A program made the translations under genes and the position numbers. Below the pieces are notes generated by a model. The model was not told the DNA's origin and did not search any database. It saw nothing but the letters and a program-made list of their open reading frames with translations. From NCBI GenBank assembly GCA_044352715.1, contig JBILDG010000001.1, positions 1 through 48,156 on the forward strand: a stretch of 48,156 bases of DNA, given 5' to 3'. Shown here piece after piece: positions 593-35,910 of this stretch (its first letter is position 1; the number at the start of each line of letters is the position of its first letter). The DNA comes from Chthoniobacterales bacterium (lineage in GTDB: Bacteria; Verrucomicrobiota; Verrucomicrobiia; Chthoniobacterales; JACTMZ01).

Positions 593-626
593 GGACGATC
601 CCGCCAAAAATCGGCACGTTTCGGCC
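593..626 (-). promoter_or_regulatory. Bipartite direct-repeat element, copy a
   Basis: The minus strand reads GGCCGAAACGTGC-CGATTTTT-GGCGGGATCGTCC, two 13-nt repeats with a 21-nt offset. After 22 nt comes TACATT (570..565). It lies between the GH78 stop (688) and the sulfatase ATG (481). Confidence 0.6.
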
Positions 627-687
627 ACGGTCGACCTTCTCGGGCCATGCTCAATTTCACCTGCAGATTCGTGCTTGGTGCGGATTT

Positions 688-2946
688 TCATGATGCTTTG
701 ACGCGGGCTGTAAAACTGTGACGACCGGGCGGAAGTTTCTTGGTGCGCTGGCCCGGAAGCCGCAGCTCTGCGGTCGTGCCCGGCGGGACCGTGGCTTCGC
801 CGCGCAGGGTTTTCCCGCGCACTTGCCAGCGGCATTCGGCGCGGCCTTGCGGGGTGTCGAGTTCGCAGCGCGCGGAGGTGAGTCCGCCGCCGGGTTCGGG
901 GGCGAAGAGAATCTTCTTATAACCGGGGGACTGCAAACGAATGCCGCCGATGACGCTATACATCCAATCGCCGACGGCGCCGTAGGCGTAGTGATTGAAA
1001 GAATTCATGCCGACATCGCCGAAGCCATGCTCTTTGGTGTAGCTGTTCCAGCGCTCCCACATGGTCGTCGCGCCGTTGCGCACGGTGTAGAGCCACGACG
1101 GATAGTCTTCCTGCAACAGGATCTTGTAAGCCAGATCGGTGCGGCCGAAGCGCGTGAGAACCGGCAGCAGCAGCGGTGTGCCGACGAAGCCGGTGGTGAG
1201 GTGGCAGCCCCTCGCCTCGATGAGCTCGACGAGATGGGCGAAGGCTTTGGGACGCAGCTTGGCCGGCAACAGGTCAAAGGCCAGCGCCAGAAGATACGCC
1301 GTTTGACAATGTCCGACCACGCGGCCATCGGGAGTGACGTAAGCGTTGCGGAACGCGTCCACGATCTGCGCGTGCAGTTTGCGGAACCTGGGCGCGTCGT
1401 CTTTTTTCCCGAGAACACCGGCAATCTTCGCCATGAGGTCGGTGGTGTGAGCGAAGTAGGCCGTGCCGACCAGGTCGCAGGGCACAGGCGCGTTCTGGGC
1501 GGTGACTGCGTCGATGGCCAGCCAATCGCCATACATGGTGCGCGGGCGGATGAGGTTCTTCGAGGTCCGCTCTTGGTAGGCGATCCAGCGCTTCATGGCG
1601 TCGTAGTTCTCCGCGAGGACTTCCTTGTCGCCGTAGTGACGGTAGATCTGCCACGGGCAGATGACGCCGGCGTCGGCCCAGGCGGCGTTGCCGAAATGGA
1701 GCGGGCTGTGTTTGCCCAGGACATCGGGTGCCACGTCGGGATAGGCGCCGTCGGTCCGTTGGCCGTCGCGCAGATCCTGCAGCCATTTGCGGAAGAAATC
1801 GCGGACATCGTAATGGAAGGCGGCCGTGCCGATGAAGACCTGCGCGTCGCCGGTCCAGCCGAGACGTTCGTCGCGTTGGGGGCAGTCGGTCGGGACATCG
1901 AGGAAGTTGCCCCGCAAGCCCCAACTGATATTGCGGTCGAGACGGTTGAGCAGCGGGTTCGAGCAGCGGAACTTTCCGGTCGGACGCATGTCCGTGTGCA
2001 AGACGAGCGCGGTGAGAAGATCGGACGACGGCTTCTTGTCCAAACCCGTGACCTCCACATAGCGGAAACCATGGAAGGTGAAGCGCGGCGTCCACTCTTC
2101 GATTCCCCCACCCCGGCAGATGTAGGTGTCGGTCGCGCGGGCCAGGCGGAGGTTCTCGCGGTAGACCGCGCCGTCCGCGTTGAGCATCTCGGCGAACTTG
2201 AGTGTGATCTTCTGTCCGCGCCGCCCGCGGATTTTCAGCCGGCAGACGCCGGCGACGTTTTGTCCGAAGTCGAAAACATAGGCTCCTTTGGCCGGTTCCG
2301 TGATCTTCCGCGGCTTGATCGACTGCGTGACGCGCACCGGTTCATTGACTTTGGGGACAAGTTCCCCGCGGTAAGCCGGGAAAAGATCCGCCGGTCGCCA
2401 GCCGGCTGTCGGGGCATTCGACACGCACCAGTCCCCGAGTTCTTTCCGCGCATCGTAACTTTCGCCATGGTAGATGTCCGCCGCGACAATCGGTCCGTTG
2501 CGCATTTCCCATCCGCGCCCCGTGGTCACGCTGACCTTACGCCCGTTGTGCAACTCGATGTCCAACCACGCCAGCAACTGCGGGTGCGTGCCGTAGTGGT
2601 TGCGGTCGTTCTTCCACAGGAGCGTGCCGGTATACCAACCATCACCGAGGATCGCGCCGAGCGTGTTCTCCCCTGCTTGCAACATCTTGGTCACGTCCAC
2701 CCCTATGACTTGCGCCCGCTGGCGGAAATCCGACCAGCCCGGCATGAGAAACTCGTCCGCTACCTTCTCCCCGTTGAGAAACAGGTCAGCTACGCCGAGC
2801 GCGGTCCAGTGCAGGGTGGCACGGCGCACCGGTCCGTTCAGCGCGAACGAATGCCGCAGATACGGACAAGGTGGCTCGCCTTTGATGGCACGACGGCCGT
2901 CGCCGATCCATCGGGCGCCAGCGGGAAGTGAGTTCTTTTTTTGCAT
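688..2946 (-). CDS. Alpha-L-rhamnosidase, GH78 (no signal peptide)
   Basis: 752-aa ORF. The hallmark GH78 block is DVPTDCPQRDERLGWTGDAQVF. N-terminal and six-hairpin regions are typical of bacterial rhamnosidases (LFLNGEKV, HGFRYVEV, TTMWERWNSY). Confidence 0.9.
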   Translation of the reverse strand: MQKKNSLPAGARWIGDGRRAIKGEPPCPYLRHSFALNGPVRRATLHWTALGVADLFLNGEKVADEFLMPGWSDFRQRAQVIGVDVTKMLQAGENTLGAILGDGWYTGTLLWKNDRNHYGTHPQLLAWLDIELHNGRKVSVTTGRGWEMRNGPIVAADIYHGESYDARKELGDWCVSNAPTAGWRPADLFPAYRGELVPKVNEPVRVTQSIKPRKITEPAKGAYVFDFGQNVAGVCRLKIRGRRGQKITLKFAEMLNADGAVYRENLRLARATDTYICRGGGIEEWTPRFTFHGFRYVEVTGLDKKPSSDLLTALVLHTDMRPTGKFRCSNPLLNRLDRNISWGLRGNFLDVPTDCPQRDERLGWTGDAQVFIGTAAFHYDVRDFFRKWLQDLRDGQRTDGAYPDVAPDVLGKHSPLHFGNAAWADAGVICPWQIYRHYGDKEVLAENYDAMKRWIAYQERTSKNLIRPRTMYGDWLAIDAVTAQNAPVPCDLVGTAYFAHTTDLMAKIAGVLGKKDDAPRFRKLHAQIVDAFRNAYVTPDGRVVGHCQTAYLLALAFDLLPAKLRPKAFAHLVELIEARGCHLTTGFVGTPLLLPVLTRFGRTDLAYKILLQEDYPSWLYTVRNGATTMWERWNSYTKEHGFGDVGMNSFNHYAYGAVGDWMYSVIGGIRLQSPGYKKILFAPEPGGGLTSARCELDTPQGRAECRWQVRGKTLRGEATVPPGTTAELRLPGQRTKKLPPGRHSFTARVKAS

Positions 2947-2952
2947 GGTAAA

Positions 2953-4419
2953 TCAGTGAGCTATCTCGCGCAGTTTGCGCTGCGTTTCTTCGGCACGTTG
3001 GCGCGTGATGGGGTAAAGCCACATGATGGCGATGGCCAGCAGTAGGCCCGCGCATTGGAAGCCGACCAGTGCAGCTTTCATTTTCCACGCCGTGTTCTCG
3101 TCGAGCCCGGCGCGTTCGACGATTTGCGGGTCGTAGCCGGCGGCGGTGGCCATGTAGCCACCGATGCCGAAGGTCAGCCCCTGCGCAGCCTTTAGCGCGA
3201 AGCTCTTCACCGCACTGAACATCCCCTCGCGGCGACGTCCGGTGCGCAGTTCGTCGTCGTCACACACGTCGGCGGTCATCGAGTCGACCATCAGCCAGCA
3301 ACCCTGAAGCCCGAGAAAAGCGAGGAAACTGCTCAGAAAAAGCATCCACGGCCAACGCGGATCCATCGCGACGAAACTCAGAGCCGTGCCGGCGAAAGCG
3401 AGGACCAGCCCGCTGACCATGGCCGTGCGCTTGCTCGTGCGCATGGAGATCCAGCTGATGAGGAAGATGCTGATATAAGAAAGCGCCACCGCCATGGTCA
3501 TAAGCGCGCCTTGGAAATTTCCCAACTTGATGGCATCCCCGCCGAAAACATAGTGATGCATAATCAGCGGCGCGATGCTCTGCGCGGAGAACAGGGCGAC
3601 GATGATGGTCAGGTAGGCAACAAAAAGGATGACAAACGGACGGTTGGTCATGGTGTAGCGCACGGCCTCGAGAAAACGGATCGGCTCCTGCTTCTCGATG
3701 AAGAGTTCCTCCTTGCACCCGAACACAGGGATCATGCCTGCCACCAGCACGATGGCCGCGACGCCCACCGAGACCCAGAAAGCCCCCGCCCCGAGGCTCG
3801 GCCAATATTCGTCGGCCGCCAAACGGAAGAGCCAACCGGCGGCCAGCGAGCCAAAGAGGCCGATATACATCCGCCAGCGCACCACCCGCGTGCGCTCGTC
3901 GTAGTCCGGCGTCAGCTCGAAGCCCAAGGCAGTGTAAGGCACGACGAAAAATGTGTAGGCCAGGGCGAGCAGGCTACCCACCACCACAATGTAAAGGAAC
4001 GGGACATTGCTATACCACGGGTTGGCGGCCGTTTCCGTCATGGGCAACGTCCAGAGCAGCGGCAGGAGCAAGACGCAGCCGAGCACACCGACGAACATGA
4101 ACGGACGGCGCCTGCCGAAGCGCGACTTCGAGTTGTCCGAGAGGTTGCCGATCAGCGGATCGGTGATCGCGTCGAAAATCCGCGGCAAGCCGAGCGCCAA
4201 TCCGGCCAGCGCGGGCGAGAGTTTGAAGTGGTTCACGTAAACTAGCGTCCCCAACGCGGCCAAGGTGTTGAACATGAAGTTGTCGGCCAGCCCGCCGAAA
4301 CCCCACATCACTTTGGTGCGCAACGGCACGTGCTTGCGACCGGGAACGGCTGGAATGTGCGAGGGATTGGACATATTAAAACTCGGCTCGGTCAGGACGG
4401 GGTTTGTCACGCGGGACAT
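2953..4419 (-). CDS. MFS transporter, glycoside-pentoside-hexuronide (GPH) cation symporter family
   Basis: 488 aa and polytopic. GPH signature DAITDPLIGNLSDNSKSRFGRRRPFMFVG. It lies 6 nt upstream of the GH78 gene, so they probably share an operon. Confidence 0.85.
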   Translation of the reverse strand: MSRVTNPVLTEPSFNMSNPSHIPAVPGRKHVPLRTKVMWGFGGLADNFMFNTLAALGTLVYVNHFKLSPALAGLALGLPRIFDAITDPLIGNLSDNSKSRFGRRRPFMFVGVLGCVLLLPLLWTLPMTETAANPWYSNVPFLYIVVVGSLLALAYTFFVVPYTALGFELTPDYDERTRVVRWRMYIGLFGSLAAGWLFRLAADEYWPSLGAGAFWVSVGVAAIVLVAGMIPVFGCKEELFIEKQEPIRFLEAVRYTMTNRPFVILFVAYLTIIVALFSAQSIAPLIMHHYVFGGDAIKLGNFQGALMTMAVALSYISIFLISWISMRTSKRTAMVSGLVLAFAGTALSFVAMDPRWPWMLFLSSFLAFLGLQGCWLMVDSMTADVCDDDELRTGRRREGMFSAVKSFALKAAQGLTFGIGGYMATAAGYDPQIVERAGLDENTAWKMKAALVGFQCAGLLLAIAIMWLYPITRQRAEETQRKLREIAH

Positions 4420-4557
4420 GGGGCGCCAGTCGCATAGTCATGGCGTAATACGGGTGGCGACCAGGCTTGCGGTGGCGTGACCCTCGATGGCCAAGAGCGC
4501 CTCGGCCCTCTTGCCGAAGGCTTGCTTATCGAGAACGCGAGGGAGCATGCACGCGTA

Positions 4558-5244
4558 TTACTCCAATCTGCGGATGCGAAAATCATCAAGCAACGTCACC
4601 TCGCTTCCATCCGCTTGGCCTTTGGAAATCCCGGGAATGGAGTGGGCAAGGTGAAGCTGCATGACCGGGGAAGTCGCACGAAATTTCACCGAGCACTTCA
4701 CCCACTCACCCTTTGTTTCGACGCGGTTCATATTGGCGATGCGGCTGCCGGGCTTTTCTGGGTCGGTGATAATGGTTGTGACCGCGCCCATACCACCCTG
4801 CAGCATGCTTCCGGTCTGGACCCATTCGATTTCATATTCGGCTCCTGCCTCAAGTCCCCTCAGCTTGGCGCCAAACACACCCGAGGGCGCCCCTCGACCC
4901 GAGGTTTCCGGACTCGCGGAAACTCCTTTGAGGAAGGCGACTTGGGAGCCCTCCGCGGCCTCAACGCCCTCGGCATACGAACCACCAGCCCGGCAGATTC
5001 CTGCATCAAGTCCGAAGATCCAACCTTCCTCGGGGGCGTGCGTGTCTACCCCGGTCGCCACCTGCAGGTTTTTTGCCTCCAACGAGGGCTCTTCAAAGCC
5101 CGGATTGGCGATTTCCTGAGCCGGCACCGCGGTCAACGACACCGCCAAGGCCATGGCAGCTAATGCACAGGTTGGTCCGGATCCGCATCGCAGGCGGTGG
5201 CAGGACGCACGTGGCAGGAACGATGGATGTTTTGTTTTCATCAT
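4558..5244 (-). CDS. Small secreted protein, galactose-binding/DUF642-like jelly-roll (family guess)
   Basis: Start trimmed to the internal MMKTKH (ATG 5244..5242), because the ORF-track extension would overlap the upstream sulfatase. A signal peptide is followed by IANPGFEEP...GW...AEGSQVAFL...LEAGAEYEIEW, a pattern typical of CBM-like beta-sandwiches. Confidence 0.6.
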   Translation of the reverse strand: MMKTKHPSFLPRASCHRLRCGSGPTCALAAMALAVSLTAVPAQEIANPGFEEPSLEAKNLQVATGVDTHAPEEGWIFGLDAGICRAGGSYAEGVEAAEGSQVAFLKGVSASPETSGRGAPSGVFGAKLRGLEAGAEYEIEWVQTGSMLQGGMGAVTTIITDPEKPGSRIANMNRVETKGEWVKCSVKFRATSPVMQLHLAHSIPGISKGQADGSEVTLLDDFRIRRLE

Positions 5245-5284
5245 TTTGAAGAAGACCTCCGGTCGGGAATACGGCGCAGTCGTT

Positions 5285-6748
5285 TCATCGTGCGGAAGGC
5301 TCGCTGACGCCAAAATAGTGGCGATACCACTCAGACTCCTGCTCGTTGAGGGGCCCCCGGGGAAGCCCGCTGGGATCGAGCTGGGTCGTCCATTCGGTGA
5401 GCTTCTTTTGCAGGTCGTCGGCGATCTCGGGATAAACGGCGAAGAGGTTGCGCTTCTCCTCCCGATCGTCCTTGAGATTGAAAAGAAGGGGTTTCCCACG
5501 GCCCGCCTGAAGGAGTTTCCAATCGCCCGAGCGCACCGCGGCCTGACGCCAAAACCGCCAGAACAGTTCCCGCTGTGGAATCTCCCCGCCGGACTCGGTG
5601 AGAAAAGGAAGCAGATCCACGCCGTCAAGCAGGGGATCCGGCGGAAGCCCGGCGGCCGCGTTGATGGTGGCCGTCAGGTCCAGCGTGATGACCGGTTGAG
5701 TCACAACCCTCCCCTGCGGCAGACGCGAGGGCCAAGCCAGCAGAAACGGCACCCGAATACCCCCTTCGGCCAACATGCCCTTTTCGCCCGTCAGCGGCGC
5801 GTTGATCGATCCGTCCCATGCGGGGCCGGCCTTGCCCACCGGCAAAACGTCGGCCATGGGTTCTCCTTGGTGAGATCCAAGCGGAGCTCCATTGTCGCTG
5901 GCGAAGATAAACAGCGTGTTGTCTCGCAGCCCTTTCTCCTCGAGCAAATCCATCATGCGCCCGACCCCGTCGTCGACCGCGGCCATCATGGCCAGTGCCG
6001 TTCGTCTCCGCTCCGGCATGTCCCCGGGAAAGCGATCGAGGTACGCTTGCGTTGCCGCGAGCGGAACGTGCGGGGCATAGTAACCCAAGTAGAGGAAAAA
6101 CGGCTGGTCAGCACGAAGGCGCATGAAAGCCAAGGCAGCCCGCGTCTGCTCCTCGATGCGGTCATCGCTCGTGCGATGCGCCTCCCCCTCGGCATTGAGA
6201 GACCTGCCCTCCAGATCAAAATTTCGCCAATAACTTTCCGTCTCACCCGTGTAGAAATCGTCAAAACCCCGCGCTTTCGGCGAATATTTCTGCTCGAGTT
6301 CGTGGGGGACCTTGACCTCGCGGCCCTCGACGATCTCGGGGTGCTCGCGCCGCGCCCAGCGCAGGCAAGCAACGTTCGGATCCAAGTGCCATTTGCCCAC
6401 CATGCCGGTGGCATAACCGGCGCCCCGCAAACGATCGGCGATCGTTTTTTCCTCCAGAGGCAACGGCCCGTCCACAATCGAGTCAAAGCCGAACCGCTGC
6501 TGATACCGTCCGGTGATCAAGCCGGCACGCGACGGAGAACATTGCGGGGCTGTGACATAACCATCGGTGAAAAGCACACCCTCGCGGGCCAGACGGTCGA
6601 GATGAGGCGTTTTGATGTCCGGGCACAGTCCATGCACGCCCAGATCGGCATAGCCTTGATCATCCGTGAAGATGAGGACGATGTTCGGAGGCCGCTCAGC
6701 ATGGAGCATGGCAACCGGGAGAAAACAGAGGAGGAGAAGAACCTTCAC
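5285..6748 (-). CDS. S1-family sulfatase (secreted)
   Basis: Core PPNIVLIFTDDQGYADLG and motif APQCSPSRAGLITGRY. Start placed at the in-frame GTG 6748..6746, giving the signal peptide (M)KVLLLLCFLPVAMLHA. The ORF-track start at 7141 would add about 130 non-sulfatase aa and overlap the neighbouring gene. The start is uncertain. Confidence 0.85.
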   Translation of the reverse strand: MKVLLLLCFLPVAMLHAERPPNIVLIFTDDQGYADLGVHGLCPDIKTPHLDRLAREGVLFTDGYVTAPQCSPSRAGLITGRYQQRFGFDSIVDGPLPLEEKTIADRLRGAGYATGMVGKWHLDPNVACLRWARREHPEIVEGREVKVPHELEQKYSPKARGFDDFYTGETESYWRNFDLEGRSLNAEGEAHRTSDDRIEEQTRAALAFMRLRADQPFFLYLGYYAPHVPLAATQAYLDRFPGDMPERRRTALAMMAAVDDGVGRMMDLLEEKGLRDNTLFIFASDNGAPLGSHQGEPMADVLPVGKAGPAWDGSINAPLTGEKGMLAEGGIRVPFLLAWPSRLPQGRVVTQPVITLDLTATINAAAGLPPDPLLDGVDLLPFLTESGGEIPQRELFWRFWRQAAVRSGDWKLLQAGRGKPLLFNLKDDREEKRNLFAVYPEIADDLQKKLTEWTTQLDPSGLPRGPLNEQESEWYRHYFGVSEPSAR

Positions 6749-7128
6749 GGACGGAGAAAGGTTGGAAAACACGCCGGACGCAAAGGCCCGATCCTGACCA
6801 GCGCCCCCGTGCCGTGGGTCAGACGATCGGGATCCCCACACCTTTTTTTTCCGAGGTATCGGGCCGCGCGGACAGAGGAACGCAGATTGAGGGCGGAGGA
6901 TTCCATCGCGGCAGATGATGAGCTGTCTGCACACTACATTAGGTAAGCTTTCCTTCCAGAGTTTTTTCAGCGGAAAGATGGCTGCTGCGGCGACCGACCG
7001 AATGCCCCCATCAGCAAAACAGCGGCCCGCTGGCCTCCGGCTCGTTGAGCTTACGGCTCGGAGAGGCCGGCGGGCCCTACCACAACAACGTCTCGGAAAG
7101 TCCAAGACCTTTTCAGGTTTTTGTAGCA

Positions 7129-7977
7129 CTATTTTTGCCATTCGAAATCGCTGGTTTGCAAGGATTCCGGGATTTCGGTGCTGACGCGCCCATCAAGCCA
7201 GAGCACGTTGAAGCTTCCCTTCGGCGGGTTTCCATCCGCAGCCAGACCGTTGCCATCAATGGGAGTGGTCGACCAACGGTAGAACTTGGAATTTTCGCCT
7301 GATTTCCATTTGCCTCGACTGTCTCGATTCCAGGCGTTGCTCATGTCACCCCCAATGCCATCGACCAGAGCCACCGTCCGCGAGGGGTTGCTGTAGACCA
7401 AGAGTTTTTTGGAATTCAAACCGCGCTGGAGGAAAGACATCAAATTTGGTCCGTGCGGGAAAGCAACCGAGGGATCGTTTCCCCCGTTGATCCAGTAGCC
7501 AATACGTAGAGGTTTTTCCGTGGCGGGATCGACGGCCCTGGGGTCGCTCCAAGTGGTCTTCAGGCCCGGCCGATCGAATATTTTGGTGTTGCCGCCGGTG
7601 TAGGGAAGAAGGTGTGCCGCCCACAAATACTGCGGGGGCTGCCCGTTGGCGTCCTTCATCATCCCGAGGGGCGGCGGCAGGTAACCATCGTTGTCCGCCA
7701 CGTGGGCCATCATGGCCGCGCCGATCTGACGCAGGTTCGAGGCGCTGGCCGCTTTTTGGCCTTTCAAGATCATCCCCCGCCCCACCGGAAACGCGAGCGC
7801 GGCAAGAATAGCGATGATGGCCAACACCACCAAGATTTCGACAAGGGAAAAAGCCGCGCGGCCGAGGTGTTTGCGGGGAAAGGGGCTGGTCGGCACCTGG
7901 TGGGTCGCGAGCGCAATGGTTTGTCCCGGGTTCGGAATCCAACTCGCACCACCCACAATTTTGGTCGGGTTACGCAT
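7129..7977 (-). CDS. Prepilin-type N-terminal cleavage/methylation domain protein (type II pseudopilin-like, DUF1559/H-X9-DG-like)
   Basis: AAFSLVEILVVLAIIAILAALAFPV is a classic prepilin hydrophobic helix. The C-terminal NVLWLDGRV resembles the H-X9-DG family tail, here with P in place of H. Start at ATG 7977 (MRNPTK). Confidence 0.8.
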   Translation of the reverse strand: MRNPTKIVGGASWIPNPGQTIALATHQVPTSPFPRKHLGRAAFSLVEILVVLAIIAILAALAFPVGRGMILKGQKAASASNLRQIGAAMMAHVADNDGYLPPPLGMMKDANGQPPQYLWAAHLLPYTGGNTKIFDRPGLKTTWSDPRAVDPATEKPLRIGYWINGGNDPSVAFPHGPNLMSFLQRGLNSKKLLVYSNPSRTVALVDGIGGDMSNAWNRDSRGKWKSGENSKFYRWSTTPIDGNGLAADGNPPKGSFNVLWLDGRVSTEIPESLQTSDFEWQK

Positions 7978-8204
7978 AAAAAGTTCAGTGCGCCGCGTCG
8001 CGCAGCTCGCATGGCGTATCTTCGGTGCGTTGGTGCGTGATCGAGTCAGGCAACATGACGGCGAGGAGGAAGCCTGTGCGGCGTAAGTCGTGCACGCAGG
8101 CTGAGGAAGCATCATCTAGGTAAGTCATAATGATGGCGACAGGCGCACTCGTGACAGGAAATCAGTGCAACCCGGCGCCAGTTCTCTGGCCAGCAGCAAG
8201 CGCC

Positions 8205-10598: not shown

Positions 10599-10624
10599 GG
10601 CTGGGAGTAGATGTCTACCCAAAA

Positions 10625-10630
10625 ATTATA
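10625..10630 (-). promoter_or_regulatory. Candidate -10 box (TATAAT) for the PATR/PEP-CTERM gene
   Basis: The plus strand reads attata, so the minus strand reads TATAAT. It lies 26 nt upstream of ATG 10598. No convincing -35 was found. Confidence 0.3.
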
Positions 10631-10759
10631 GGAAACCTTCCCTTACGCAAGTGTTTTTTCGCCTAAAAGATTTTCGGCCCTAGCCCCGCGAGAGTCACCG
10701 GACCCGGAAAAATGTTTGGACGGCGGCGGGCGAGAGAGCTAAAGGGAACATTCCCTGTA

Positions 10760-11777: not shown

Positions 11778-11974
11778 ATTTTTACTTTGCGAGTGAAGCG
11801 GGTTGACAACGGAAGGATTTAAATTAAGAAAGAGAAGCTTTCCTAGTTAGGGCGAGATTTTATGCTGAAACTGGTTTTCTCCCACGAATTTCCGTCAGCC
11901 GCCGTGCGAGGCGGGTGGCATGGGAGGTCCTTTTGGGTCGCAGGTCTCTACCCCCCTACTCTGTATTGGTGCCG

Positions 11975-13450: not shown

Positions 13451-13466
13451 ACCGCTTCAGTCGAAG

Positions 13467-20340: not shown

Positions 20341-20355
20341 GATTTTTGCCTCATT

Positions 20356-28050: not shown

Positions 28051-29528
28051 GGCTTGGCCGCCCGCCGTTCGCGCAGGAGGGCTTGGATTTCCCTCACCCG
28101 TTCGCGGCTGAGACGGTAGCGGCTGAAAACGATCATGGCCGCGATGATGCAAGCGCTGGGGAAGAAGGCGATGAATAGACGCAGGCGGGTCAACGACTCC
28201 GGCGTCATCTTGTCGGCCCCGGCATCATAACCGATAAAGACCAGCGCGTAGCCGAGGGTGAAGGCGATGCCGGTGAACCCCAGCTTGACCACGAAGCCGA
28301 AGAAGGACGCAAAAATGCCCTCGCGACGGTAACCGTGCTGGAGTTCATCCTCGTCGCAGATATCGGCAAGGAAGGCACCGTTGAGCAGCCAGACGGCGGT
28401 CATGCCCCCGCCCATGAACACCGCGAGCACCAGCTGGAGCGCCGGCCAACCGGGGCGCAGCAGGAACCACGAACTCATGATGGCCAGCGCGGACAGCGCC
28501 ATGCCGGAGAGCAGAACCGTCTTTTTGTCGAAGCGACGCACGATCCGCGGGATAACGAACGTGGCAGCCAAAAGGGAGACAGCGGACGTGGTGCCGTAAA
28601 AACCGTTCCAGGTGGCACCGCTGCTTTTGTCGCCGCCGAAGATGTAAAAGATGTTGGCGTAGATGATCAGCGCCCCCATGAAATACACGCCGCAAATGAC
28701 GAAGAAGATCATCAGGCACAAGGTGCGGAACGAGCGGTTTTGCAGGGCCAGTTTGCCGGAGTGCAAAAGGTGGAGCTTGGCCTGGTCATGGACCTTCAGC
28801 CGTTCGCGGGCGAAGAGGGCGACAGGCAACGCGGTGACGGCTATAACAATTGCCAGCGCCCAAGCCAGGTAGCGGATACCCAGCACCTCGACTTTCACGT
28901 CGTCACTGGAGGCCATGTGCACGACCGGATGGAAGAGGAAGGAATACCAAGCGGTCTGGCCGGAAACGACAAACTCGCGGATGAATTCACCGGCACTCAG
29001 GCAAGCCTTGTAGAGCCACGGCAGGAGAAAAGCGGCCGCCGAGGCGAAGATCATGCGGTATTTCTGGACGTCAGCCCGCTCGTCGTAGTCCGAGGTCAAC
29101 TCCAGCCCCAGCGCGTAGTAGGGCACGGAAAAAACGGTATACATCAGATAGAAGAAGACGCAGGCCGTGACGGCATACGCGAAAAGGGCGGAATTTTCCC
29201 AGTAAGGCGACGCCATGTAGGAGACACCGAAGGCGAAGGCCATGAGCAATCCGCCGGCAAAAATGAACGGACGCCGCCGCCCGAACCGGCTGCGGCTGTT
29301 GTCCGAGATGTTCCCCATCACGGGATCGGAGATGGTGTCGAAAAACCGCGGGATAGCCACCGCCCACCCGACGAGGACGGAACTGAGGCCGAAGCCGATG
29401 TTGTAGATGGGGACAAAGAGAGTGTTCAGGCCGTTGGTCGCCATTTGCTCGCTGAAACCACCGAGGCCCCAGGCGATCTTTTCACGTCTCGGCAAGTGGG
29501 CGGCGCGGTCGTCGTGGGAGTGGGACAT
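28047..29528 (-). CDS. MFS transporter, GPH cation symporter family (paralog of 2953..4419)
   Basis: DTISDPVMGNISDNSRSRFGRRRPFIFAGG is the same signature as in the other GPH gene. The protein is polytopic, 493 aa. Confidence 0.85.
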   Translation of the reverse strand: MSHSHDDRAAHLPRREKIAWGLGGFSEQMATNGLNTLFVPIYNIGFGLSSVLVGWAVAIPRFFDTISDPVMGNISDNSRSRFGRRRPFIFAGGLLMAFAFGVSYMASPYWENSALFAYAVTACVFFYLMYTVFSVPYYALGLELTSDYDERADVQKYRMIFASAAAFLLPWLYKACLSAGEFIREFVVSGQTAWYSFLFHPVVHMASSDDVKVEVLGIRYLAWALAIVIAVTALPVALFARERLKVHDQAKLHLLHSGKLALQNRSFRTLCLMIFFVICGVYFMGALIIYANIFYIFGGDKSSGATWNGFYGTTSAVSLLAATFVIPRIVRRFDKKTVLLSGMALSALAIMSSWFLLRPGWPALQLVLAVFMGGGMTAVWLLNGAFLADICDEDELQHGYRREGIFASFFGFVVKLGFTGIAFTLGYALVFIGYDAGADKMTPESLTRLRLFIAFFPSACIIAAMIVFSRYRLSRERVREIQALLRERRAAKP

Positions 29529-29554: not shown

Positions 29555-31387
29555 TCAGCGAAGGATCAATTCCACGGGATCCAAGGTCCAATCGTTGATC
29601 TCGCGAATGTTGCGGCCTCCGCTCCAGCCGAGAAGGATCTTCGCCTCGCCGGAACCTTTGGCGCGGTCCCAGCGGATTTCGACCGCACCATCCGGGGTCT
29701 TCGTGGCCTCGATCCACTCGTTGCCCGTCAGCACGACCGCGCTGGTCGCCACGGGCTCTCCTTTTTCATTCAGCAGTCGCACTTCACGCGTGCCGCGATC
29801 CTCATCCAAAGACAGGACCGCTTCTTCCAGTTTCAGCGCGGCTGGACGCGTCGGGGGCGCCTTGTCTCTCCGCGGGGTGCGCGGGGAGCCGGTGAAGTTT
29901 TCGTTGCGCAGAGGGATGAGGGCATCGGATTCGCGCAGGTGGTTTTCGATGAGAGCATCCAACGCGCGCACACGCTCGGGCCGATAGGCAGCCAGATTGA
30001 CCGCCTCGCCCGGATCGGCCGCCAAATCATAAAGCTCGTAATGGTGCGTGCCGGGTTCATCGCCGGCCCAGAAGAAGCGCAGAAGTTTCTCGTTCCCCAG
30101 CCGCACCGCGGACGAAGGTGCGCAGAGAATGCCGAAGCGGGAGGGAAAATCGAAAAAGAGCGGACGCTCCGGCAGGGAACCTCCGTCGAAAAGCGGACGC
30201 AAGCTCACACCGTCGACCGCTTGACCGGCGGGTAAAGGCACCCCGGCGTAATCGAGGATGGTCGGAAACAGGTCGGTCGACACCACGGGGACGTTGGAGA
30301 CCGTGCCGGGCTTGATGTGTCCGGGATATGCCACCACCCAAGGCACGCGCACCCCGCCCTCGTAGGTGTTGGCCTTGCCGCCGCGCAGCGGGCGGTTGGA
30401 GGTGACTTGTCGGCCGTTGATCTCGTCATGGATGACCCCGCCGTTGTCGGAGAGAAAGACAATCAGCGTGTTGTCGCGCAGAGCCTTGTTTTCCGGCTGG
30501 TCGAGGTAATCGAGCAAGACACCGACGCTCTGGTCCAGACTTTCCACCATCGTGCCCATGACGGGCGAATCGTGGAGGCCGCGCGGGTCTTTTTTGCCGC
30601 GGTATTTCTCGAGCAAGTCCTTGCGCGGGATGTAGGGCGAGTGCACCGCGTAAAGCCAGAGGTTGAGGAAGAACGGCCGATCCGAGTCCTTGACTTGGCC
30701 GATCCACTTCACCGCTTCCTCGACCAGGCGGTTGTCGAGATGCTCGCCCTCAGGACCCGCTTCTAGGCCGGGGATTTCGCTGCGGCGCTCTTGCTTGTTT
30801 TGCGGCCTGTTCGCATACGGGGAATAAAAATCCGGCGGACCCGGCGCATGGTTGCCGCCGATAACATAGTCGAACCCACGCGCTCCCGCATCGTAAGTCT
30901 CGGCGTTTTCCTCCACAGCATTGCCCGGGCGGCTGAGGTGCCACTTGCCGATGTGTGCCGTCTGGTAGCCGCTCTCCTTGAGCAGATCAGCCAGGGTACG
31001 CAGGTTGGCCGGCAGGTGATCGCGCGTCCGGATATCACCGACGTAACTCCCGTTCTCCGGAGGCAGCGCCGCGGGTTCGAAGACCTGACGCTTGGCCGTG
31101 ATGGCCTCGGTCAGGCGCAATCGCGCGGGCGATTGACCGACCATGATGCTGGCCCGCGTGGGTGAACAGAGCGGACTGGCCGCATAGCCGTCCGTGAAAC
31201 GCATTCCTTCATTGGCCAAACGCCGCAGGTTCGGCGTTTCATAATAGCCGGGCCCGTCCAGATCCGTGTCGGCCCAGCCGAGATCGTCGGCGAGGATAAG
31301 GATGATATTGGGGCGGTCCGCGGCGACCGCCGGGCAGACCAGAAAGAGAGCGGCGGCCAACGAAGACCAAATCAGGCGGGGAAACAT
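29555..31387 (-). CDS. S1-family sulfatase (secreted) with an extra C-terminal domain of about 117 aa
   Basis: Start at MFPRLIWSSLAAALFLVCPAVAA (ATG 31387). The ORF-track extension to 31960 overlaps the upstream gene. Core RPNIILILADDLGWAD and motif SPLCSPTRASIMVG. The tail follows a P/R-rich linker: ...LKLEEAVLSLDEDRGTREVRLLNEKGEPVATSAVVLTGNEWIEATKTPDGAVEIRW... Confidence 0.85.
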   Translation of the reverse strand: MFPRLIWSSLAAALFLVCPAVAADRPNIILILADDLGWADTDLDGPGYYETPNLRRLANEGMRFTDGYAASPLCSPTRASIMVGQSPARLRLTEAITAKRQVFEPAALPPENGSYVGDIRTRDHLPANLRTLADLLKESGYQTAHIGKWHLSRPGNAVEENAETYDAGARGFDYVIGGNHAPGPPDFYSPYANRPQNKQERRSEIPGLEAGPEGEHLDNRLVEEAVKWIGQVKDSDRPFFLNLWLYAVHSPYIPRKDLLEKYRGKKDPRGLHDSPVMGTMVESLDQSVGVLLDYLDQPENKALRDNTLIVFLSDNGGVIHDEINGRQVTSNRPLRGGKANTYEGGVRVPWVVAYPGHIKPGTVSNVPVVSTDLFPTILDYAGVPLPAGQAVDGVSLRPLFDGGSLPERPLFFDFPSRFGILCAPSSAVRLGNEKLLRFFWAGDEPGTHHYELYDLAADPGEAVNLAAYRPERVRALDALIENHLRESDALIPLRNENFTGSPRTPRRDKAPPTRPAALKLEEAVLSLDEDRGTREVRLLNEKGEPVATSAVVLTGNEWIEATKTPDGAVEIRWDRAKGSGEAKILLGWSGGRNIREINDWTLDPVELILR

Positions 31388-31425
31388 CAGGAGGCTACTA
31401 AAGCACAATCCACCCCACCCTTCCC

Positions 31426-31459
31426 GCACGATCCAGCCAAAAAGGAGCACGATTTCGCC
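31426..31459 (-). promoter_or_regulatory. Bipartite direct-repeat element, copy f
   Basis: The minus strand reads GGCGAAATCGTGC-TCCTTTTT-GGCTGGATCGTGC. After 23 nt comes TTTAGT (31402..31397), and 9 nt later ATG 31387. Confidence 0.6.
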
Positions 31460-31481
31460 AAGCAACCCCGGAAGGCGTGGA

Positions 31482-32924
31482 TCATGCTCGCGTTCTTCCG
31501 CCGACCAGATCGATCGGTCGCCCCGGAAATCCCGCTTCCCGCGTGTCCTCCGGCCGACGGCCGTCTGGCATGCGATAGCGCTCCGCCAGCGAATCCACAT
31601 CGACACCCCCCGGATCCCCGTAGTGGTCCATCCATTGCTGCGTGAGTTTTTCCATCCGCTCCTGCAAGGCGGTGTGCGCAGGGTCGCCGTAAAGATTGCG
31701 CAGTTGAAATGGATCCCCTTCCCGCGCGTAAAGCGCACGGACCGGAACCTTGCGCAACACCGCGCGGCCATTTTCGTCGCGCTGCCAGTGCGCCAACTCG
31801 CCGCGGCCGTAGCTGTGCTCGCGGGTGTAGACGCCATTCCAGGAAGGCTGGTGGAAAAAGAGGGGCACGGATTCCACGGCATCATCGTCGTGCTCGCGGA
31901 TGGCCCGTGAGAGATCGCGGCCCTCGCAGGTTGCCGGCACGGAGACCCCCAGCAAACCAAGCAGGGTGGGCATTAGATCCAGCGTCCCGACCAGCAGATC
32001 GCTCATCCGGCCGCGAGCTTCGCCCGGCAGATGCACGAGGAGCGGGACGCGCACGGAGGTGTCCTCGGGATGATCCTTCGAGATGGTGTAACCGTAGGAG
32101 TGTAAGTTGTCGCCGTGATCCGAAGTAAAGACAATGAGCGTATTGTCATAGTGACCGCGCGCCTTGAGTTGGTCGATGAGACGCCCGAAGGCGCGGTCGA
32201 TGCCGCTGCACATCGCGTAGTAGCCATGGTAGGCGCGTCGGATTTCCGGGGTATCCTCCGCGCTGGGACGCAGACGGATGGTCGCCGGATCATAGAGATC
32301 CATCAGATCCTGCTTCGTGCCGTAATCGAAGGTCATGGTTTCCGGGTCGAAGCCGACATCGTGCGGTGGATGCCACGAGACAAAGAGCGCGAAGGGTTCG
32401 TCCGCCCGGCAGGTATCGAGAAATTGCACCGCCTGCCGCGCCTGCCCGTCTACCTCCCATTCGTCGAAGAAAACTTTCAGTCCTTCCTTGTCCCAGTAGT
32501 AGCAATGCCCCGGACGGTAATCCATGTGGCAGTTGTTGCTCAGGAAGGTTTCGTCGAACCCGTGCCGTAGTGGACCCGGCGGCACCGGCCGGTCGCGGTT
32601 GCCGCCGAGCAGATGCCATTTGCCGACATAGGCGGTGCGGTAACCGGCCGCACCCAAGGCCTGCGCAAACGTCGTGCCGTTGTGGGCCAGCAGCGGAAGA
32701 TCATTGTGCAGCGCGCCGTGGCGGAGCGGATGCTGTCCGGTCAGCAGCATGCCGCGGTAAGGGGTGCAGACCGGACTGCTCGAAATGCAATGGTCGAACC
32801 GGATGCTCTCCGAGGCGAAGGCGTCGAGGCGCGGCGTTTTGATGTCCGCGTTGCCATAGCAACCGAGCATGTCCCGCGACTGCTGGTCGGTGAAAACGAA
32901 AAGAAGATTGGGACGCGCGTTCAC
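31482..32924 (-). CDS. S1-family sulfatase without signal peptide (predicted cytoplasmic)
   Basis: (GTG)NARPNLLFVFTDQQSRDMLG starts directly in the core. The motif is SPVCTPYRGMLLTGQHP. A GTGA overlap joins it to the upstream gene stop (32921..32924). Confidence 0.85.
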   Translation of the reverse strand: MNARPNLLFVFTDQQSRDMLGCYGNADIKTPRLDAFASESIRFDHCISSSPVCTPYRGMLLTGQHPLRHGALHNDLPLLAHNGTTFAQALGAAGYRTAYVGKWHLLGGNRDRPVPPGPLRHGFDETFLSNNCHMDYRPGHCYYWDKEGLKVFFDEWEVDGQARQAVQFLDTCRADEPFALFVSWHPPHDVGFDPETMTFDYGTKQDLMDLYDPATIRLRPSAEDTPEIRRAYHGYYAMCSGIDRAFGRLIDQLKARGHYDNTLIVFTSDHGDNLHSYGYTISKDHPEDTSVRVPLLVHLPGEARGRMSDLLVGTLDLMPTLLGLLGVSVPATCEGRDLSRAIREHDDDAVESVPLFFHQPSWNGVYTREHSYGRGELAHWQRDENGRAVLRKVPVRALYAREGDPFQLRNLYGDPAHTALQERMEKLTQQWMDHYGDPGGVDVDSLAERYRMPDGRRPEDTREAGFPGRPIDLVGGRTRA

Positions 32925-35155
32925 TGCTGCTGCAGCAGCATGCTGCGCAACGGGCCGATCTGCAACGGCAGCGGCGCGGTCGCTTCGCGGATTTCGCCCG
33001 TGGTCGGATCCATCACGGTGACCGGGCCGCTGCCGCCCACCTGCACGGCGAGGTCTTGTTCCTTCTTGTTCATGACGAAGTAGATTTTCTTCCCGTCGCG
33101 GTGGAAACGCGCCACGCCGAGTTCCGCTGTGCCGGGCGTGAAGGTCAGGTCGAACGCCGGACTGTATGCTTGCCCGATGAGCGCGGGAAGTTCACCGGCC
33201 GCCATGGGACGGGCGGCAGCCAGGGCTTGGCGGACCGCTTCATCATCGCGCGCGTAGAGGGCGGCCGAAGGAACCTCATCCACCCATATCACCTTTCCCC
33301 CGGCAGCTTCGAAAGCCTCGATCTTGCGGAGGACATCGAAGGGCAGCAGGTCCGTCGGCGGGATGACCAGCACGCGATAGGAACCGCGCCCGATGCGGAG
33401 GCGACCGTCTTCGATCGCCGCTTCGGCCACGGCCTGCGGGTGGACGACACTGAAGTCGATGTCGGCCGACGTGAGCGTTTCATCGATGGTTTTCCACGGC
33501 TTCTCGAAATCGGCGAATTCCTTTTGCAGTTTGCTCCAGTGCCGGTTGGTCGGACGATACAGGCCCTGGAAGCGGGAGATGGGATAATAGACGGCCACCT
33601 CGTTCTCCCGTCGCGCCCCGCGCAGGACCAGCGAGAGACGGCCGATGTATTCATTGAAAGCGCGGAATTCCTCCGGTGTGTAACCGGCGGCCTTGCGGCC
33701 GCGTCCTCCAGCGTCCGGGGTGTCGACCGGATCGAGCGGGAGGTAGGAGGAAAACGAATTCACGCCGTGGAAAAACAGCCAGTTGGCCGAGTTGAGCAGC
33801 AACGGAATCTCCGGGGAAAGTCGCTTCATGCCGCCGCCGGCGATGATTGGATCGAGCAGGACGATCACTTCGTCGCGGTCCTTCCATTCCGCGATGGAGC
33901 TGCAGAAACGGGCTTGCTCATAGTGGAAGGAATCGAAGCGGTCGCGGTTGGGGATACCGATGTCCATGGCCGGCACGTCGAACTCGGCCGCGAAGAGCAG
34001 CAGGTCCCCGTAACAGGGCACGTGCAGCGAGGGATACTCGTCGTGCAGGAAATGGCCGCTGGAGGAAACACCGCGCGCCTCGCACCATTTGTGGATTTGC
34101 TCGGCGAAGTTGGCGCGGAGCAATTCGGCGACCGTCTGGTGGAAATGCGTGCGCACCCGGCGCGACTCGAGATCGTCGCCCGCGAAGAGACGCGGCAACT
34201 GTGGCATCAGGTCGTAGCCGTGCATGGCCGCAAACTTGGCCGGGATCTCCGCGTTCCACGACACGCAGGCAAACGGGCCATCGGCCATGATCCAGTGCAA
34301 CTGCATGAGGTGCGGCTCGTTGGCGTAAAAGCCTCGCGCCTTCTCCTGCAGCGCGCCGGATTCGACGGAGATCGGCGTGTGCATGATCTCGAGGAAGCTC
34401 TTTACCGCGTCGGGATTGAGCAGGTCGGGATAGCGCCCGCTGTGTTTGAATTGGGCCATGGTGCTCTGCGCTTGGACATCGCGGTCGCGAATGACGGTGA
34501 AGAAGGCGTGCAGTTCCCACGGTCCATCCACTCCTTCGGCGGTGACTTTCCCGTTCTCCACGTTGACCGTGGCTCCCTCCGCCGGTTGCAAGCCATCGGG
34601 AGTCACGCGATAAAGCGCGGCCGAGACGAAGCGCTCCGCGCCTGGGGGCAGGTCGATGTTCGCCGGGACAATGCCCTCCCCTTTTTGGCTAACCGTGGCC
34701 AGACCCCGCACTTCGTATTCCGGATTTTTTTCCACGACCTTGCCGCCCGCCATGCCGCTCGGGTAGCCGAAGTCATCGGCCAGCCAGACCGGGGCGTCCT
34801 GCTCCTGCGCTCGGGCCAGGAGAGGCCCGATGTTCTTTCGCCCATCGGGCCCCGATTGATAGAGTTCACCGTGGAAAAACGCCATGTAGCCGCCGATGCC
34901 GTATTCGGGATATTGCTTTAGCGTTTTGTCTTTCAGCCCGTATTTGATGAGCCGGTAGTTGTTGGGCGGATCGGCGAATTCTTTGGCGAAAGTCTCCTCT
35001 GCAGTGACAGGCGTAGCCGCTGCCGCGGGCGTCGCGTCTGCCACCGGTTCCTCGGATGAAGCGAGAGACTCGGCGGGAGGACGGGAACAAGCGGTCACCA
35101 TGCCCAAGGCCAGCGCCGCGAAAAGAATTCGTCCGGTGAAGAGAAGGAGATGCAT
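32921..35155 (-). CDS. Large glycoside-hydrolase-like lipoprotein, paralog of 20474..23557 (family unassigned; GH106-like is a guess)
   Basis: Start at MHLLLFTGRILFAALALGMVTAC (ATG 35155, lipobox-like). The TTG at 35206 lies inside regulatory element c. Shared motifs are GIGGYMAFFHG, WLADDFGYPSGMAGG and RGFYANEPH. Confidence 0.6.
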   Translation of the reverse strand: MHLLLFTGRILFAALALGMVTACSRPPAESLASSEEPVADATPAAAATPVTAEETFAKEFADPPNNYRLIKYGLKDKTLKQYPEYGIGGYMAFFHGELYQSGPDGRKNIGPLLARAQEQDAPVWLADDFGYPSGMAGGKVVEKNPEYEVRGLATVSQKGEGIVPANIDLPPGAERFVSAALYRVTPDGLQPAEGATVNVENGKVTAEGVDGPWELHAFFTVIRDRDVQAQSTMAQFKHSGRYPDLLNPDAVKSFLEIMHTPISVESGALQEKARGFYANEPHLMQLHWIMADGPFACVSWNAEIPAKFAAMHGYDLMPQLPRLFAGDDLESRRVRTHFHQTVAELLRANFAEQIHKWCEARGVSSSGHFLHDEYPSLHVPCYGDLLLFAAEFDVPAMDIGIPNRDRFDSFHYEQARFCSSIAEWKDRDEVIVLLDPIIAGGGMKRLSPEIPLLLNSANWLFFHGVNSFSSYLPLDPVDTPDAGGRGRKAAGYTPEEFRAFNEYIGRLSLVLRGARRENEVAVYYPISRFQGLYRPTNRHWSKLQKEFADFEKPWKTIDETLTSADIDFSVVHPQAVAEAAIEDGRLRIGRGSYRVLVIPPTDLLPFDVLRKIEAFEAAGGKVIWVDEVPSAALYARDDEAVRQALAAARPMAAGELPALIGQAYSPAFDLTFTPGTAELGVARFHRDGKKIYFVMNKKEQDLAVQVGGSGPVTVMDPTTGEIREATAPLPLQIGPLRSMLLQQQ

Positions 35156-35191
35156 CGGGTAAAAGTAGACGACCGGCAACTCAACCCGCCA

Positions 35192-35239
35192 TGACGATTC
35201 CGCCAATTTTCAGCACGATTCGGCACCAACGATTCCGCC
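35192..35239 (-). promoter_or_regulatory. Bipartite direct-repeat element, copy c, plus an extra upstream repeat
   Basis: The minus strand at 35225..35192 reads TGCCGAATCGTGC-TGAAAATT-GGCGGAATCGTCA. A third repeat, GGCGGAATCGTTGG, lies at 35239..35226. After 24 nt comes TACTTT, then TACCCG, then ATG 35155. Confidence 0.6.
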
Positions 35240-35265
35240 GTGAAAAATGACGGCAGTGCCGCGCC

Positions 35266-35838
35266 TTAAGACGAAGGCGTGACTTCGATGGTGACGTTGC
35301 CGATGCCGGGGTATCCCTTGACCGCCCAAAACTGGATGGTCACCCACGTGCCGGCCGGCACCTTGGTCGCCACCAGGCGCTGGGCGCCGGCGGCTTGGAA
35401 GCTCTGCTTGGCCAGAACGGGATCCCCCCCGTTCGCGCGGGCGTTGACGATCGCCGCTCCCATCCAGAACTCCTCCTCCCCGAAGCCAACAGTGTCAAAG
35501 GTCAGCGTGACATCCGACATCTCGGCCAAAACGCCGAGTTCCTGCTTGAAGGCGTAGAACTCCGGCTTGAGCCGACTTAGCACGCGCAGGTTGGCTGCGA
35601 TACCGGCCGCCCCCATCTTGCGCACGGTGTAAAAGTCACTGTCTTGATCCTGCGGCGGGGCTGCCGTCCAGCCTGTCGGAACACCAGAGTACCAACCCGG
35701 ATGCTGGAGGGGGGACAAACCATCCATGTTGCTGAAGTCACCGTTGATCACGGCCAGCGCGTCGTCCTCTGCCGCGGTGGCAGAGACTAACGCAAGAACA
35801 CCAAGAGCAGGGACAAGGAGGAGGGAACGAATGCTCAT
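35266..35838 (-). CDS. Small secreted protein, CBM/DUF642-like jelly-roll (family guess)
   Basis: 190 aa. The signal peptide is MSIRSLLLVPALGVLALVSATAA. It is followed by VINGDFSNMDG...GW...VTLTFDTVGFG...WVTIQFWAV...NVTIEV. Confidence 0.6.
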   Translation of the reverse strand: MSIRSLLLVPALGVLALVSATAAEDDALAVINGDFSNMDGLSPLQHPGWYSGVPTGWTAAPPQDQDSDFYTVRKMGAAGIAANLRVLSRLKPEFYAFKQELGVLAEMSDVTLTFDTVGFGEEEFWMGAAIVNARANGGDPVLAKQSFQAAGAQRLVATKVPAGTWVTIQFWAVKGYPGIGNVTIEVTPSS

Positions 35839-35876
35839 AGTGATTCAATCTACAGCCCGTGATGTGGCGACCGCGC

Positions 35877-35910
35877 GCACGATTCCGCCAAAATCCCGCA
35901 CGTTACCGCC
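35877..35910 (-). promoter_or_regulatory. Bipartite direct-repeat element, copy d (best match to the consensus)
   Basis: The minus strand reads GGCGGTAACGTGC-GGGATTTT-GGCGGAATCGTGC. After 24 nt comes TAGATT (35852..35847), and 8 nt later ATG 35838. It begins 10 nt downstream of the AraC gene stop. Confidence 0.6.

Follow-up and report, generated by a model that had tools for sequence, protein, structure and literature searches.

A 34-nt direct-repeat element in a sulfatase-rich verrucomicrobial glycan locus: probable operator of an AraC-family, RhaS/RhaR-like activator

The window analysed here is the whole 48,156-nucleotide (nt) stretch of contig JBILDG010000001.1 (positions 1 to 48,156, forward strand) from a Chthoniobacterales bacterium of the phylum Verrucomicrobiota (assembly GCA_044352715.1), in which a 34-nt direct-repeat element is found in seven copies upstream of genes for sulfatases and other glycan-processing proteins. 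A Pfam scan of 30 open reading frames (ORFs) in the window identifies a glycan-utilisation locus with nine sulfatase genes, together with genes for a glycoside hydrolase family 78 (GH78) alpha-L-rhamnosidase, two GH106-like proteins, a WbsX-like protein (PF14307), two MFS_2 transporters, and SASA and GDSL esterases. The sole NCBIfam match of the two GH106-like proteins is to the alpha-L-rhamnosidase BT4145 model and is weak (1e-8 and 2e-14, far below the cut-off). Surface-type proteins of two kinds typical of Verrucomicrobiota (PATR/PEP-CTERM and prepilin-like N_methyl) are also recognised by Pfam, and three regulator genes are present, belonging to the LacI family (16850-17944), the GntR/FCD family (37013-37714), and the AraC family (35921-36973).

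Each copy of the element contains two direct repeats of about 13 nt joined by 8 nt, and all seven copies listed in the initial annotation of this DNA are reproduced exactly from the window sequence, with the same coordinates and strands. The starts of the two repeats lie exactly 21 nt apart in 7 of 7 copies, as had been proposed. When a half-site position weight matrix (PWM) built from the 14 half-sites of the seven window copies is applied to the window, seven pairs are found at the 21-nt spacing and 0-1 pairs at each other spacing between 13 and 34 nt, and no additional pair appears at a relaxed threshold of 12 bits. The window contains 7 matches to a degenerate pair pattern against an expectation of 0.015 (maximum of 1 in 200 first-order Markov shuffles), and PWM pairs are found in 0 of 100 shuffles. 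An independent repeat finder places six of the copies in a single 40-nt family, D2 (588-627, 18139-18178, 20302-20341, 31421-31460, 35187-35226, and 35872-35911), and reports the seventh (site e+) as an inverted pair, I11, with site c. No match at the gathering score was obtained with Rfam covariance models over the whole window on both strands, and a literature search for the core sequence returned primers and unrelated matches only.

Alignment of 26 sites from the window and 19 other loci, all with the identical 21-nt spacing, gives the consensus GGCgggATCGTGC-Tg.a.tTT-GgC.GgATcgTc(A). Within each half-site, two blocks are conserved (GGC and ATCGTGC), about one helical turn apart. The information content is 1.0-1.4 bits per position inside the element and falls to 0.14 in the upstream flank and 0.23 in the downstream flank. 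The joint between the repeats had been described as a T/A tract, but it is more than that, since the T with which it opens and the TT with which it closes are conserved among the 26 sites.

The placement of the copies relative to genes is equally regular. Under a gene map with plausible ATG starts, all seven are intergenic and aimed at the downstream gene, which agrees with the initial reading; on this map the intergenic share of the window is ~7%, so that the chance of 7 of 7 sites falling there is ~1e-8. The only ORFs that copies c, e+, and f overlap are the longest mechanical ones (starting at TTG 35206, ATG 20375, and TTG 31960, respectively), for which ATG starts at 35155, 20474, and 31387 are far more plausible, being followed by signal peptides or conserved N-termini. 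Sites c, d, f, e-, and a lie on the minus strand. Site c (35192-35225) precedes a GH106-like gene (32921-35155, minus strand) and a sulfatase gene (31482-32924, minus strand), with a TACTTT sequence at 35162-35167 and the ATG at 35155, 36 nt past the repeat. Site d (35877-35910) starts 11 nt past the stop codon of the AraC-family gene and precedes a gene for a 190-residue secreted protein (35266-35838, minus strand), with TAGATT at 35847-35852 and the ATG at 35838. Site f (31426-31459) precedes a sulfatase gene (29555-31387), an MFS_2 transporter gene (28047-29528), and another sulfatase gene (26476-28152), all on the minus strand. Site e- (20307-20340) precedes the WbsX-like gene (19067-20272, minus strand), with TACAGT at 20279-20284 and the ATG at 20272, 34 nt past the repeat. 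Site a (593-626; GGCCGAAACGTGC cgattttt GGCGGGATCGTCC) precedes a sulfatase gene that begins at ATG 481 and runs out of the window, and inspection of the sequence reveals a -10-like TACATT at 565-570 on the same minus strand. Site e+ (20356-20389) lies on the plus strand, divergent from e- with 15 nt separating their distal repeats, and precedes a GH106-like gene (20474-23557) and two sulfatase genes (23554-24975 and 24861-26420), with a -10-like TACAAA at 20413-20418. The remaining copy, site b (18144-18177, minus strand), is the weakest and its proximal repeat is degenerate; a distance of 199 nt separates it from the start of the LacI-family gene (16850-17944, minus strand), downstream of which lies the SASA esterase gene (15897-16772, minus strand).

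Two further sequences resemble parts of the element. An extra single half-site, GGCGGAATCGTTG (35227-35239, minus strand), is located 1 nt upstream of site c, but its significance is doubtful because it is not conserved in the closely related locus L118 described below. At the right-hand end of the window, a probable eighth site (48131-48156, plus strand; GGCAGGAACGTCA cgcggagg GGCAA) points rightward out of the window and is unconfirmed because the window ends within its proximal repeat; a weaker inverted half-site adjoins it at 48118-48130 on the minus strand.

Downstream of the element, 15 of 22 examined sites have a -10-like TAnnnT hexamer 22-24 nt past the proximal repeat, and the hexamer that directly follows the proximal repeat is GC-rich and unlike TTGACA (gcgccg, tggcgg, gcgcgg, and similar). 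An ATG is located 34-38 nt past the repeat in six of the seven window sites (P ~2e-7), 6-8 nt past the TAnnnT and without a Shine-Dalgarno sequence. At sites c, d, e-, and f, the gene itself starts at this ATG (35155, 35838, 20272, and 31387). At the other two it opens a short ORF whose TGA overlaps the ATG of the next gene (ATGA): a 26-codon ORF (478-558, minus strand) starting 34 nt past site a and ending on the sulfatase start, and a 16-codon ORF (20427-20477, plus strand) starting 37 nt past site e+ and ending on the GH106-like start at 20474. This arrangement suggests that both short ORFs are leaderless and translationally coupled to the sulfatase and GH106-like genes. A start codon 6-8 nt past a TAnnnT without a Shine-Dalgarno sequence, which is the geometry of leaderless mRNAs, is also seen in the related loci L118, L120, L121, L124, L127, and L130. 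The simplest reading is that transcripts would begin at these ATGs, which would place the two repeats at about -69 to -57 and -48 to -36 relative to the transcription start. AraC at araI1-araI2 and XylS at Pm have their repeats in the same position relative to the start, and on this likeness the element is proposed to be the site of a dimeric class II activator.

A candidate for this activator is encoded beside site d. The AraC-family gene at 35921-36889 (minus strand; the ORF extends to a GTG at 36973) lies 11 nt upstream of that site. Proteins of the AraC/XylS systems combine an N-terminal cupin-like sensor and dimerisation domain with a C-terminal double helix-turn-helix (HTH), and Pfam recognises both in the ORF 35921-36973 (AraC_binding and Cupin_2 in the N-terminal part, followed by HTH_18 and HTH_AraC). 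The best NCBIfam match is RhaS (8e-37, near full length), whereas the match to the AraC model (1e-17) covers the DNA-binding domain only. The scores are nevertheless far from the equivalog cut-offs, at 127 bits versus 288 for RhaS and 77-89 bits versus 363-525 for RhaR, and the protein is by that criterion a relative rather than an ortholog of RhaS or RhaR of E. coli. A match at 2e-11 links its N-terminal domain to the crystal structure of the corresponding domain of E. coli RhaR (5u93). The closest database relatives are 88% identical and originate from metagenomes, and the named relatives belong to Terrimicrobiaceae (78%), Opitutaceae, Pelagicoccus, Coraliomargarita, and Luteolibacter, which points to a verrucomicrobial, probably Terrimicrobiaceae-like, source.

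Contigs encoding graded homologues of this regulator were fetched and scanned with the PWM. In L118, where the regulator is ~85% identical, the gene order of the window is retained (regulator, small secreted protein, GH106-like protein, two sulfatases, MFS transporter), and the motif occurs at three promoters that match window sites d, c, and f, before the genes for a 191-residue protein, the GH106-like protein, and a sulfatase, respectively. Pairwise alignment at these three promoters reveals the 34 nt as a conserved island beside indels of 17 nt and 24 nt. Among more distant loci with regulators 63-75% identical to the window protein (L120, L121-L123, L124-L126, L127 with a degenerate copy, L128/L209, and L130), the motif lies between the stop codon of the regulator gene and a WbsX-like gene, and among the related loci, no site position is better conserved than the one before the WbsX-like gene; all close motif-bearing contigs together span regulator identities of 63-87%. 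In L124, the upstream neighbourhood consists of unrelated housekeeping genes, and two further motif copies precede paralogues of the small secreted protein. The DNA fetched for L118, L121, and L124 (11-21 kb) contains no LacI or GntR gene, and the AraC-family gene is the sole regulator that consistently accompanies the motif among the related loci.

Co-occurrence of motif and regulator extends over L118, L120-L131, L132, L135, L138, L142, and L209-L211, with two exceptions (L207 and L208, discussed below). In ~0.84 Mb surrounding 80 metagenomic AraC homologues, six matches were found at threshold, five of them directly beside the regulator gene, and a metagenome scan with the regulator alignment recovered four close relatives among the matches listed. 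Scattered matches, which the initial annotation had named as evidence against its reading, were not seen; ~70 distant AraC loci served as negative controls, and the ~0.7 Mb of control loci around non-orthologous AraC genes contained one weak stray match at the same threshold. An exact-pattern scan of genome contigs with GGCNNNAWCGTGCNNNNNNNNGGCNNRATCGT produced, among the matches listed, mostly single ones in unrelated GC-rich genomes, which are taken as chance. The same scan drew attention to tandem 21-nt arrays with GGCTCGATCGTGC-like cores in three contigs (L083, 3749-3845; L096, 5781-5835; L106, 4883-4937) labelled Rhizomicrobium, Bradymonadales, and Phycisphaeraceae; being tandem arrays in unrelated metagenome-assembled genomes (MAGs), these are probably unrelated to the element and were set aside.

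A link to rhamnose emerges from loci whose regulators are only 35-38% identical to the window protein (L131, L132, L135, L138, and L142) and in which a recognisable version of the motif is nevertheless present, located between the divergently transcribed regulator gene and an operon; L131, L132, and L135 account for some of the five matches found beside a regulator gene. In L131, the site is aimed at a sulfatase gene followed by rhaA, and in L135, where the regulator is of the Kiritimatiellales family, it is aimed at a rhaA-led operon continuing with class II aldolase and FGGY kinase genes (rhaD- and rhaB-like). The complete genome of Tichowtungia aerotolerans (L210) has CAT-GTCGTGATCGTGC-tagaagtt-GTCTGCATCGTCA-agg between the regulator gene and a rhaA-led operon with sulfatase, rhaM, Fe-alcohol dehydrogenase, and aldolase genes, while in Pontiella sulfatireligans (L211) rhaA is the gene at which a copy is aimed, and GH106 and GH78 genes come after the regulator gene. 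Genes for rhamnose catabolism or rhamnoside processing are thus found among the putative targets, as rhaA in L135, L210, and L211, as the sulfatase-rhaA pair in L131, and as GH106-like genes in the window. From the similarity of the N-terminal domain and this gene context, a rhamnose-related effector is the most economical inference. In loci of the Kiritimatiellales type, the start codon of the divergent regulator gene directly adjoins the distal repeat (CAT-GGC...; L131, 9013-9046; L135, 5328-5361; L138, ~9964-9997; L142, ~447-480; L210, just upstream of 10001), so that the promoter or leaderless start of the regulator gene would overlap the operator and autoregulation is possible.

Taken together, the elements are most probably the operator of the AraC-family, RhaS/RhaR-like activator encoded at 35921-36889, acting on a regulon for rhamnose-containing or sulfated glycans. 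Each 34-nt element would bind a dimer of this regulator through its double-HTH domains, the cupin domains serving as sensors, with one monomer on each direct repeat of ~13-17 bp. Contacts of two HTHs with DNA one helical turn apart are known from complexes of MarA, Rob, and AraC, and the GGC and ATCGTGC blocks presumably serve in this way as contacts for the HTH pair of a single AraC-type domain, and at a spacing of 21 bp the two monomers would sit on one face of the helix. The end of the proximal repeat would lie ~35-37 nt upstream of the transcription start, where no recognisable -35 hexamer exists, and the bound protein may act there as a class II activator that recruits the sigma-70 RNA polymerase. 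Most target transcripts are predicted to be leaderless, with the ATG 6-8 nt past the -10 element and no Shine-Dalgarno sequence, and induction is likely to be by L-rhamnose or by a breakdown product that contains rhamnose. In the window, the putative regulon would comprise seven promoters that drive genes for sulfatases, GH106-like proteins resembling rhamnosidases, the WbsX-like protein, an MFS_2 transporter, the small secreted protein, and the LacI-family regulator, and as a whole it looks like a verrucomicrobial utilisation system for a sulfated, rhamnose-rich polysaccharide.

The initial annotation had regarded the element as the signature of a locus-wide regulon. A regulon is borne out by the bias in position and orientation, the conserved island, and the association with one regulator family, but "locus-wide" is an overstatement because the genes at 688-15665 and those from 37013 onward have no copy. 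These include the GH78 gene (688-2946), an MFS_2 gene (2953-4419), a sulfatase gene (5285-7141), the N_methyl and PATR/PEP-CTERM genes, and the block at 10712-15665 on one side, and the GntR/SDR/dehydratase cluster and the genes beyond 37 kb on the other, where no full site is present in the window.

Several observations weigh against the proposed operator function or its link to this regulator. The absence of a site at the GH78 rhamnosidase gene and at the putative rhamnose/fucose oxidative genes (37805-39810) leaves the GH106-like genes and the distant relatives as the basis for connecting this genome with rhamnose. Site b has neither a -10-like element nor an ATG at the canonical distance, and may be weak or decaying, or work differently. 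Pelagicoccus mobilis (L207) and Luteolibacter flavescens (L208), whose regulators are 47-48% identical to the window protein, contain no convincing motif with this PWM, even though the gene set of L207 is very similar to that of the window; a possible diverged copy upstream of the Pelagicoccus WbsX-like gene (TGCAGCGAAATGC taaaagat GGCACTGTAGTGA agg) is a match by eye only. Either the link between regulator and motif is not universal, or the motif has drifted in these two genomes. Additionally, identity in the DNA-binding domain or the recognition helix does not cleanly separate motif-bearing from motif-lacking distant loci, and for this reason no claim of covariation is made.

Alternatively, the repeats could be bound by another regulator, such as a LacI-family or GntR/FCD protein or a response regulator encoded elsewhere, of the OmpR/PhoB or LytTR type. 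Both LacI and GntR genes are present in the window, site b precedes the LacI gene, and OmpR/PhoB and LytTR regulators use direct repeats, those of LytTR being 9-bp repeats with a 12-bp spacer and hence also of 21-bp period. LacI and GntR/FadR-type proteins, in contrast, bind palindromes, whereas the window sites are direct repeats. Rhamnose regulators of the LacI type likewise bind palindromes (PMC3870299). Related loci retain the motif and the AraC gene without a nearby LacI or GntR gene, and no response-regulator or LytTR gene is found among the Pfam-scanned window proteins or listed in the related loci, all of which makes recognition by another regulator improbable. If the AraC-family protein is the one that binds, it could still act mainly by repression or looping (e.g., across the e-/e+ pair) instead of class II activation. 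AraC itself represses by looping and also activates, the e-/e+ pair is arranged head-to-head, and the distal repeat on the regulator start codon in the Kiritimatiellales-type loci suggests autorepression there. The sites nevertheless end at about -36, upstream of the -10 element and not over it, and the lack of a TTGACA-like hexamer at the -35 position is typical of activator-dependent promoters, so a mainly repressing role is considered unlikely.

Two other explanations would dispense with a repeat-binding activator altogether. The element could be a promoter for a sigma factor of the extracytoplasmic function (ECF) type, with GGAAT as the -35 and CGT as the -10 element. ECF promoters typically have GGAAC at -35 and CGT at -10, 16-17 nt apart, which the GGAAT and CGT of the half-site resemble, and the ATG fixed 34-38 nt downstream could suit a short leader. 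The distance from the distal GGAAT to the proximal CGT is 21 nt, however, and duplication of the whole 13-mer is not something a sigma factor needs; a separate TAnnnT is conserved 22-24 nt downstream, no sigma-factor domain is found among the Pfam-scanned window proteins, and the presence of the motif co-varies with an AraC-family gene. An ECF promoter is accordingly a very improbable reading. Least credible of all is a mobile or recombinogenic repeat without regulatory role, comparable to a miniature inverted-repeat transposable element (MITE) or a repetitive extragenic palindromic (REP) sequence, although the multiple intergenic copies and the 85% identity of a and b over 40 nt would be compatible with it. 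The initial annotation had named a longer repeat body, terminal inverted repeats, or target-site duplications as marks of such an element, and none was found; the repeat unit is at most ~40 nt without inverted arms, and the near absence of information in its flanks rules out a MITE/REP-type element. A hairpin is not expected because the copies are direct repeats, their orientation and distance to start codons are strict, and they are kept at syntenic positions where the regulator identity is 85%, with a recognisable version in another phylum-level lineage.

The AraC-type operator favoured here resembles the AraC araI1-araI2 site of E. coli pBAD and the XylS site of Pm in having direct-repeat half-sites 21 bp apart from centre to centre, a promoter-proximal half-site that abuts or overlaps the -35 region (here as a prediction), and a regulator in which Pfam recognises a cupin-like sensor/dimerisation domain and a double HTH. 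It differs from both in that the half-site sequence is unrelated, the regulator is a distant relative, and the target transcripts are apparently leaderless, and from pBAD in that no distal O2-like looping site was identified. RhaS and RhaR of E. coli are the closest named relatives of the window regulator and are rhamnose-responsive activators with sites that reach the -35 region. Their operators are of a different type, being inverted repeats of 17-bp half-sites with a 16-17-bp spacer (PMC3870299), whereas the window sites are direct repeats and do not show the inverted arrangement; moreover, most of the predicted targets here are genes for glycan processing outside the cell or in the periplasm.

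Rhamnose regulons have been reconstructed in ten taxonomic groups, each with a unique motif (Rodionova et al. 2013; PMC3870299), and the study includes no Verrucomicrobiota, Kiritimatiellota, or Planctomycetota. Direct repeats with a 21-bp period are known from AraC-family rhamnose regulators of other phyla, and the regulons of the AraC-family RhaR of Bacteroides, Bacillales, and Enterococcus can hold rhamnosidases and oligosaccharide utilisation genes (PMC3870299). The operator design of these RhaR proteins, compared by description only, is similar to that of the window, but the window regulon is dominated by sulfatases. A literature search combining Verrucomicrobia, AraC, rhamnose, and sulfatase returned nothing relevant, and two key papers on how Verrucomicrobiota and Planctomycetota degrade sulfated methyl-pentose glycans make no mention of AraC regulators or operators; regulation of such loci is not addressed in the papers searched. 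The rhamnosidase genes of these degraders are located among sulfatase genes (PMC8857213).

Among the major degraders of algal and cyanobacterial polysaccharides that are sulfated and rich in fucose and rhamnose are the Verrucomicrobiota and Kiritimatiellota. An operator with its candidate regulator would allow the corresponding regulon to be delimited from sequence alone in genomes and MAGs, would place genes of unknown function (WbsX-like, small secreted, and GH106-like proteins) in a rhamnose-glycan pathway, and would provide an inducible promoter/regulator pair that can be tested in cultured relatives such as Tichowtungia and Pontiella. The apparent leaderless geometry is of secondary interest for gene expression in this phylum. 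Because the switch would be of a textbook AraC-type design, the finding extends rather than changes known biology. A broader and more tentative idea, possible but somewhat doubtful, is that the element represents an ancient "rha box" shared across lineages of the Planctomycetes-Verrucomicrobia-Chlamydiae (PVC) group (Terrimicrobiaceae-like Verrucomicrobiota and Kiritimatiellales, with regulators ~35% identical) and coupled to a leaderless module of fixed geometry, in which the ATG lies 34-38 nt past the box and, where the gene itself starts further downstream, opens an ATGA-coupled short ORF. The Terrimicrobiaceae-like regulon might then have grown from rhamnose catabolism into a sulfatase-rich glycan locus, and its effector could be a rhamno-oligosaccharide, perhaps a sulfated one. 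If this were true, the rha box would provide, for the first time, a usable regulatory code by which regulons for sulfated methyl-pentose glycans could be delimited in the largely uncultured PVC bacteria.

Other features of the locus deserve mention. The small secreted proteins (window, 35266-35838, minus strand; L118, 2358-2933; L124, about 17988-19355 and 19457-20065) share a conserved N-terminal "(V/T)NGDFS" motif, have no Pfam or NCBIfam match, and recur as members of the putative regulon, each preceded by its own copy of the element; the gene at 4558-5244 was considered as a paralogue of the 190-residue protein and dropped when BLASTP found no similarity. Adjoining the AraC-family gene, the GntR/FCD gene is divergent from genes for an SDR dehydrogenase and an enolase-superfamily dehydratase (37013-39810), a cluster that may encode an oxidative deoxy-sugar (rhamnose/fucose) pathway, and since it has no motif copy, a second regulatory layer seems likely. 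Between sites b and e-, genes for a PIN-domain toxin and a ParD-like antitoxin (18205-18884, minus strand) look like an insertion into the glycan locus. The PATR/PEP-CTERM gene (8205-10622, minus strand) contains a 300-nt internal direct duplication (8853-9152 and 9645-9944) with 85% identity and a 792-nt period.

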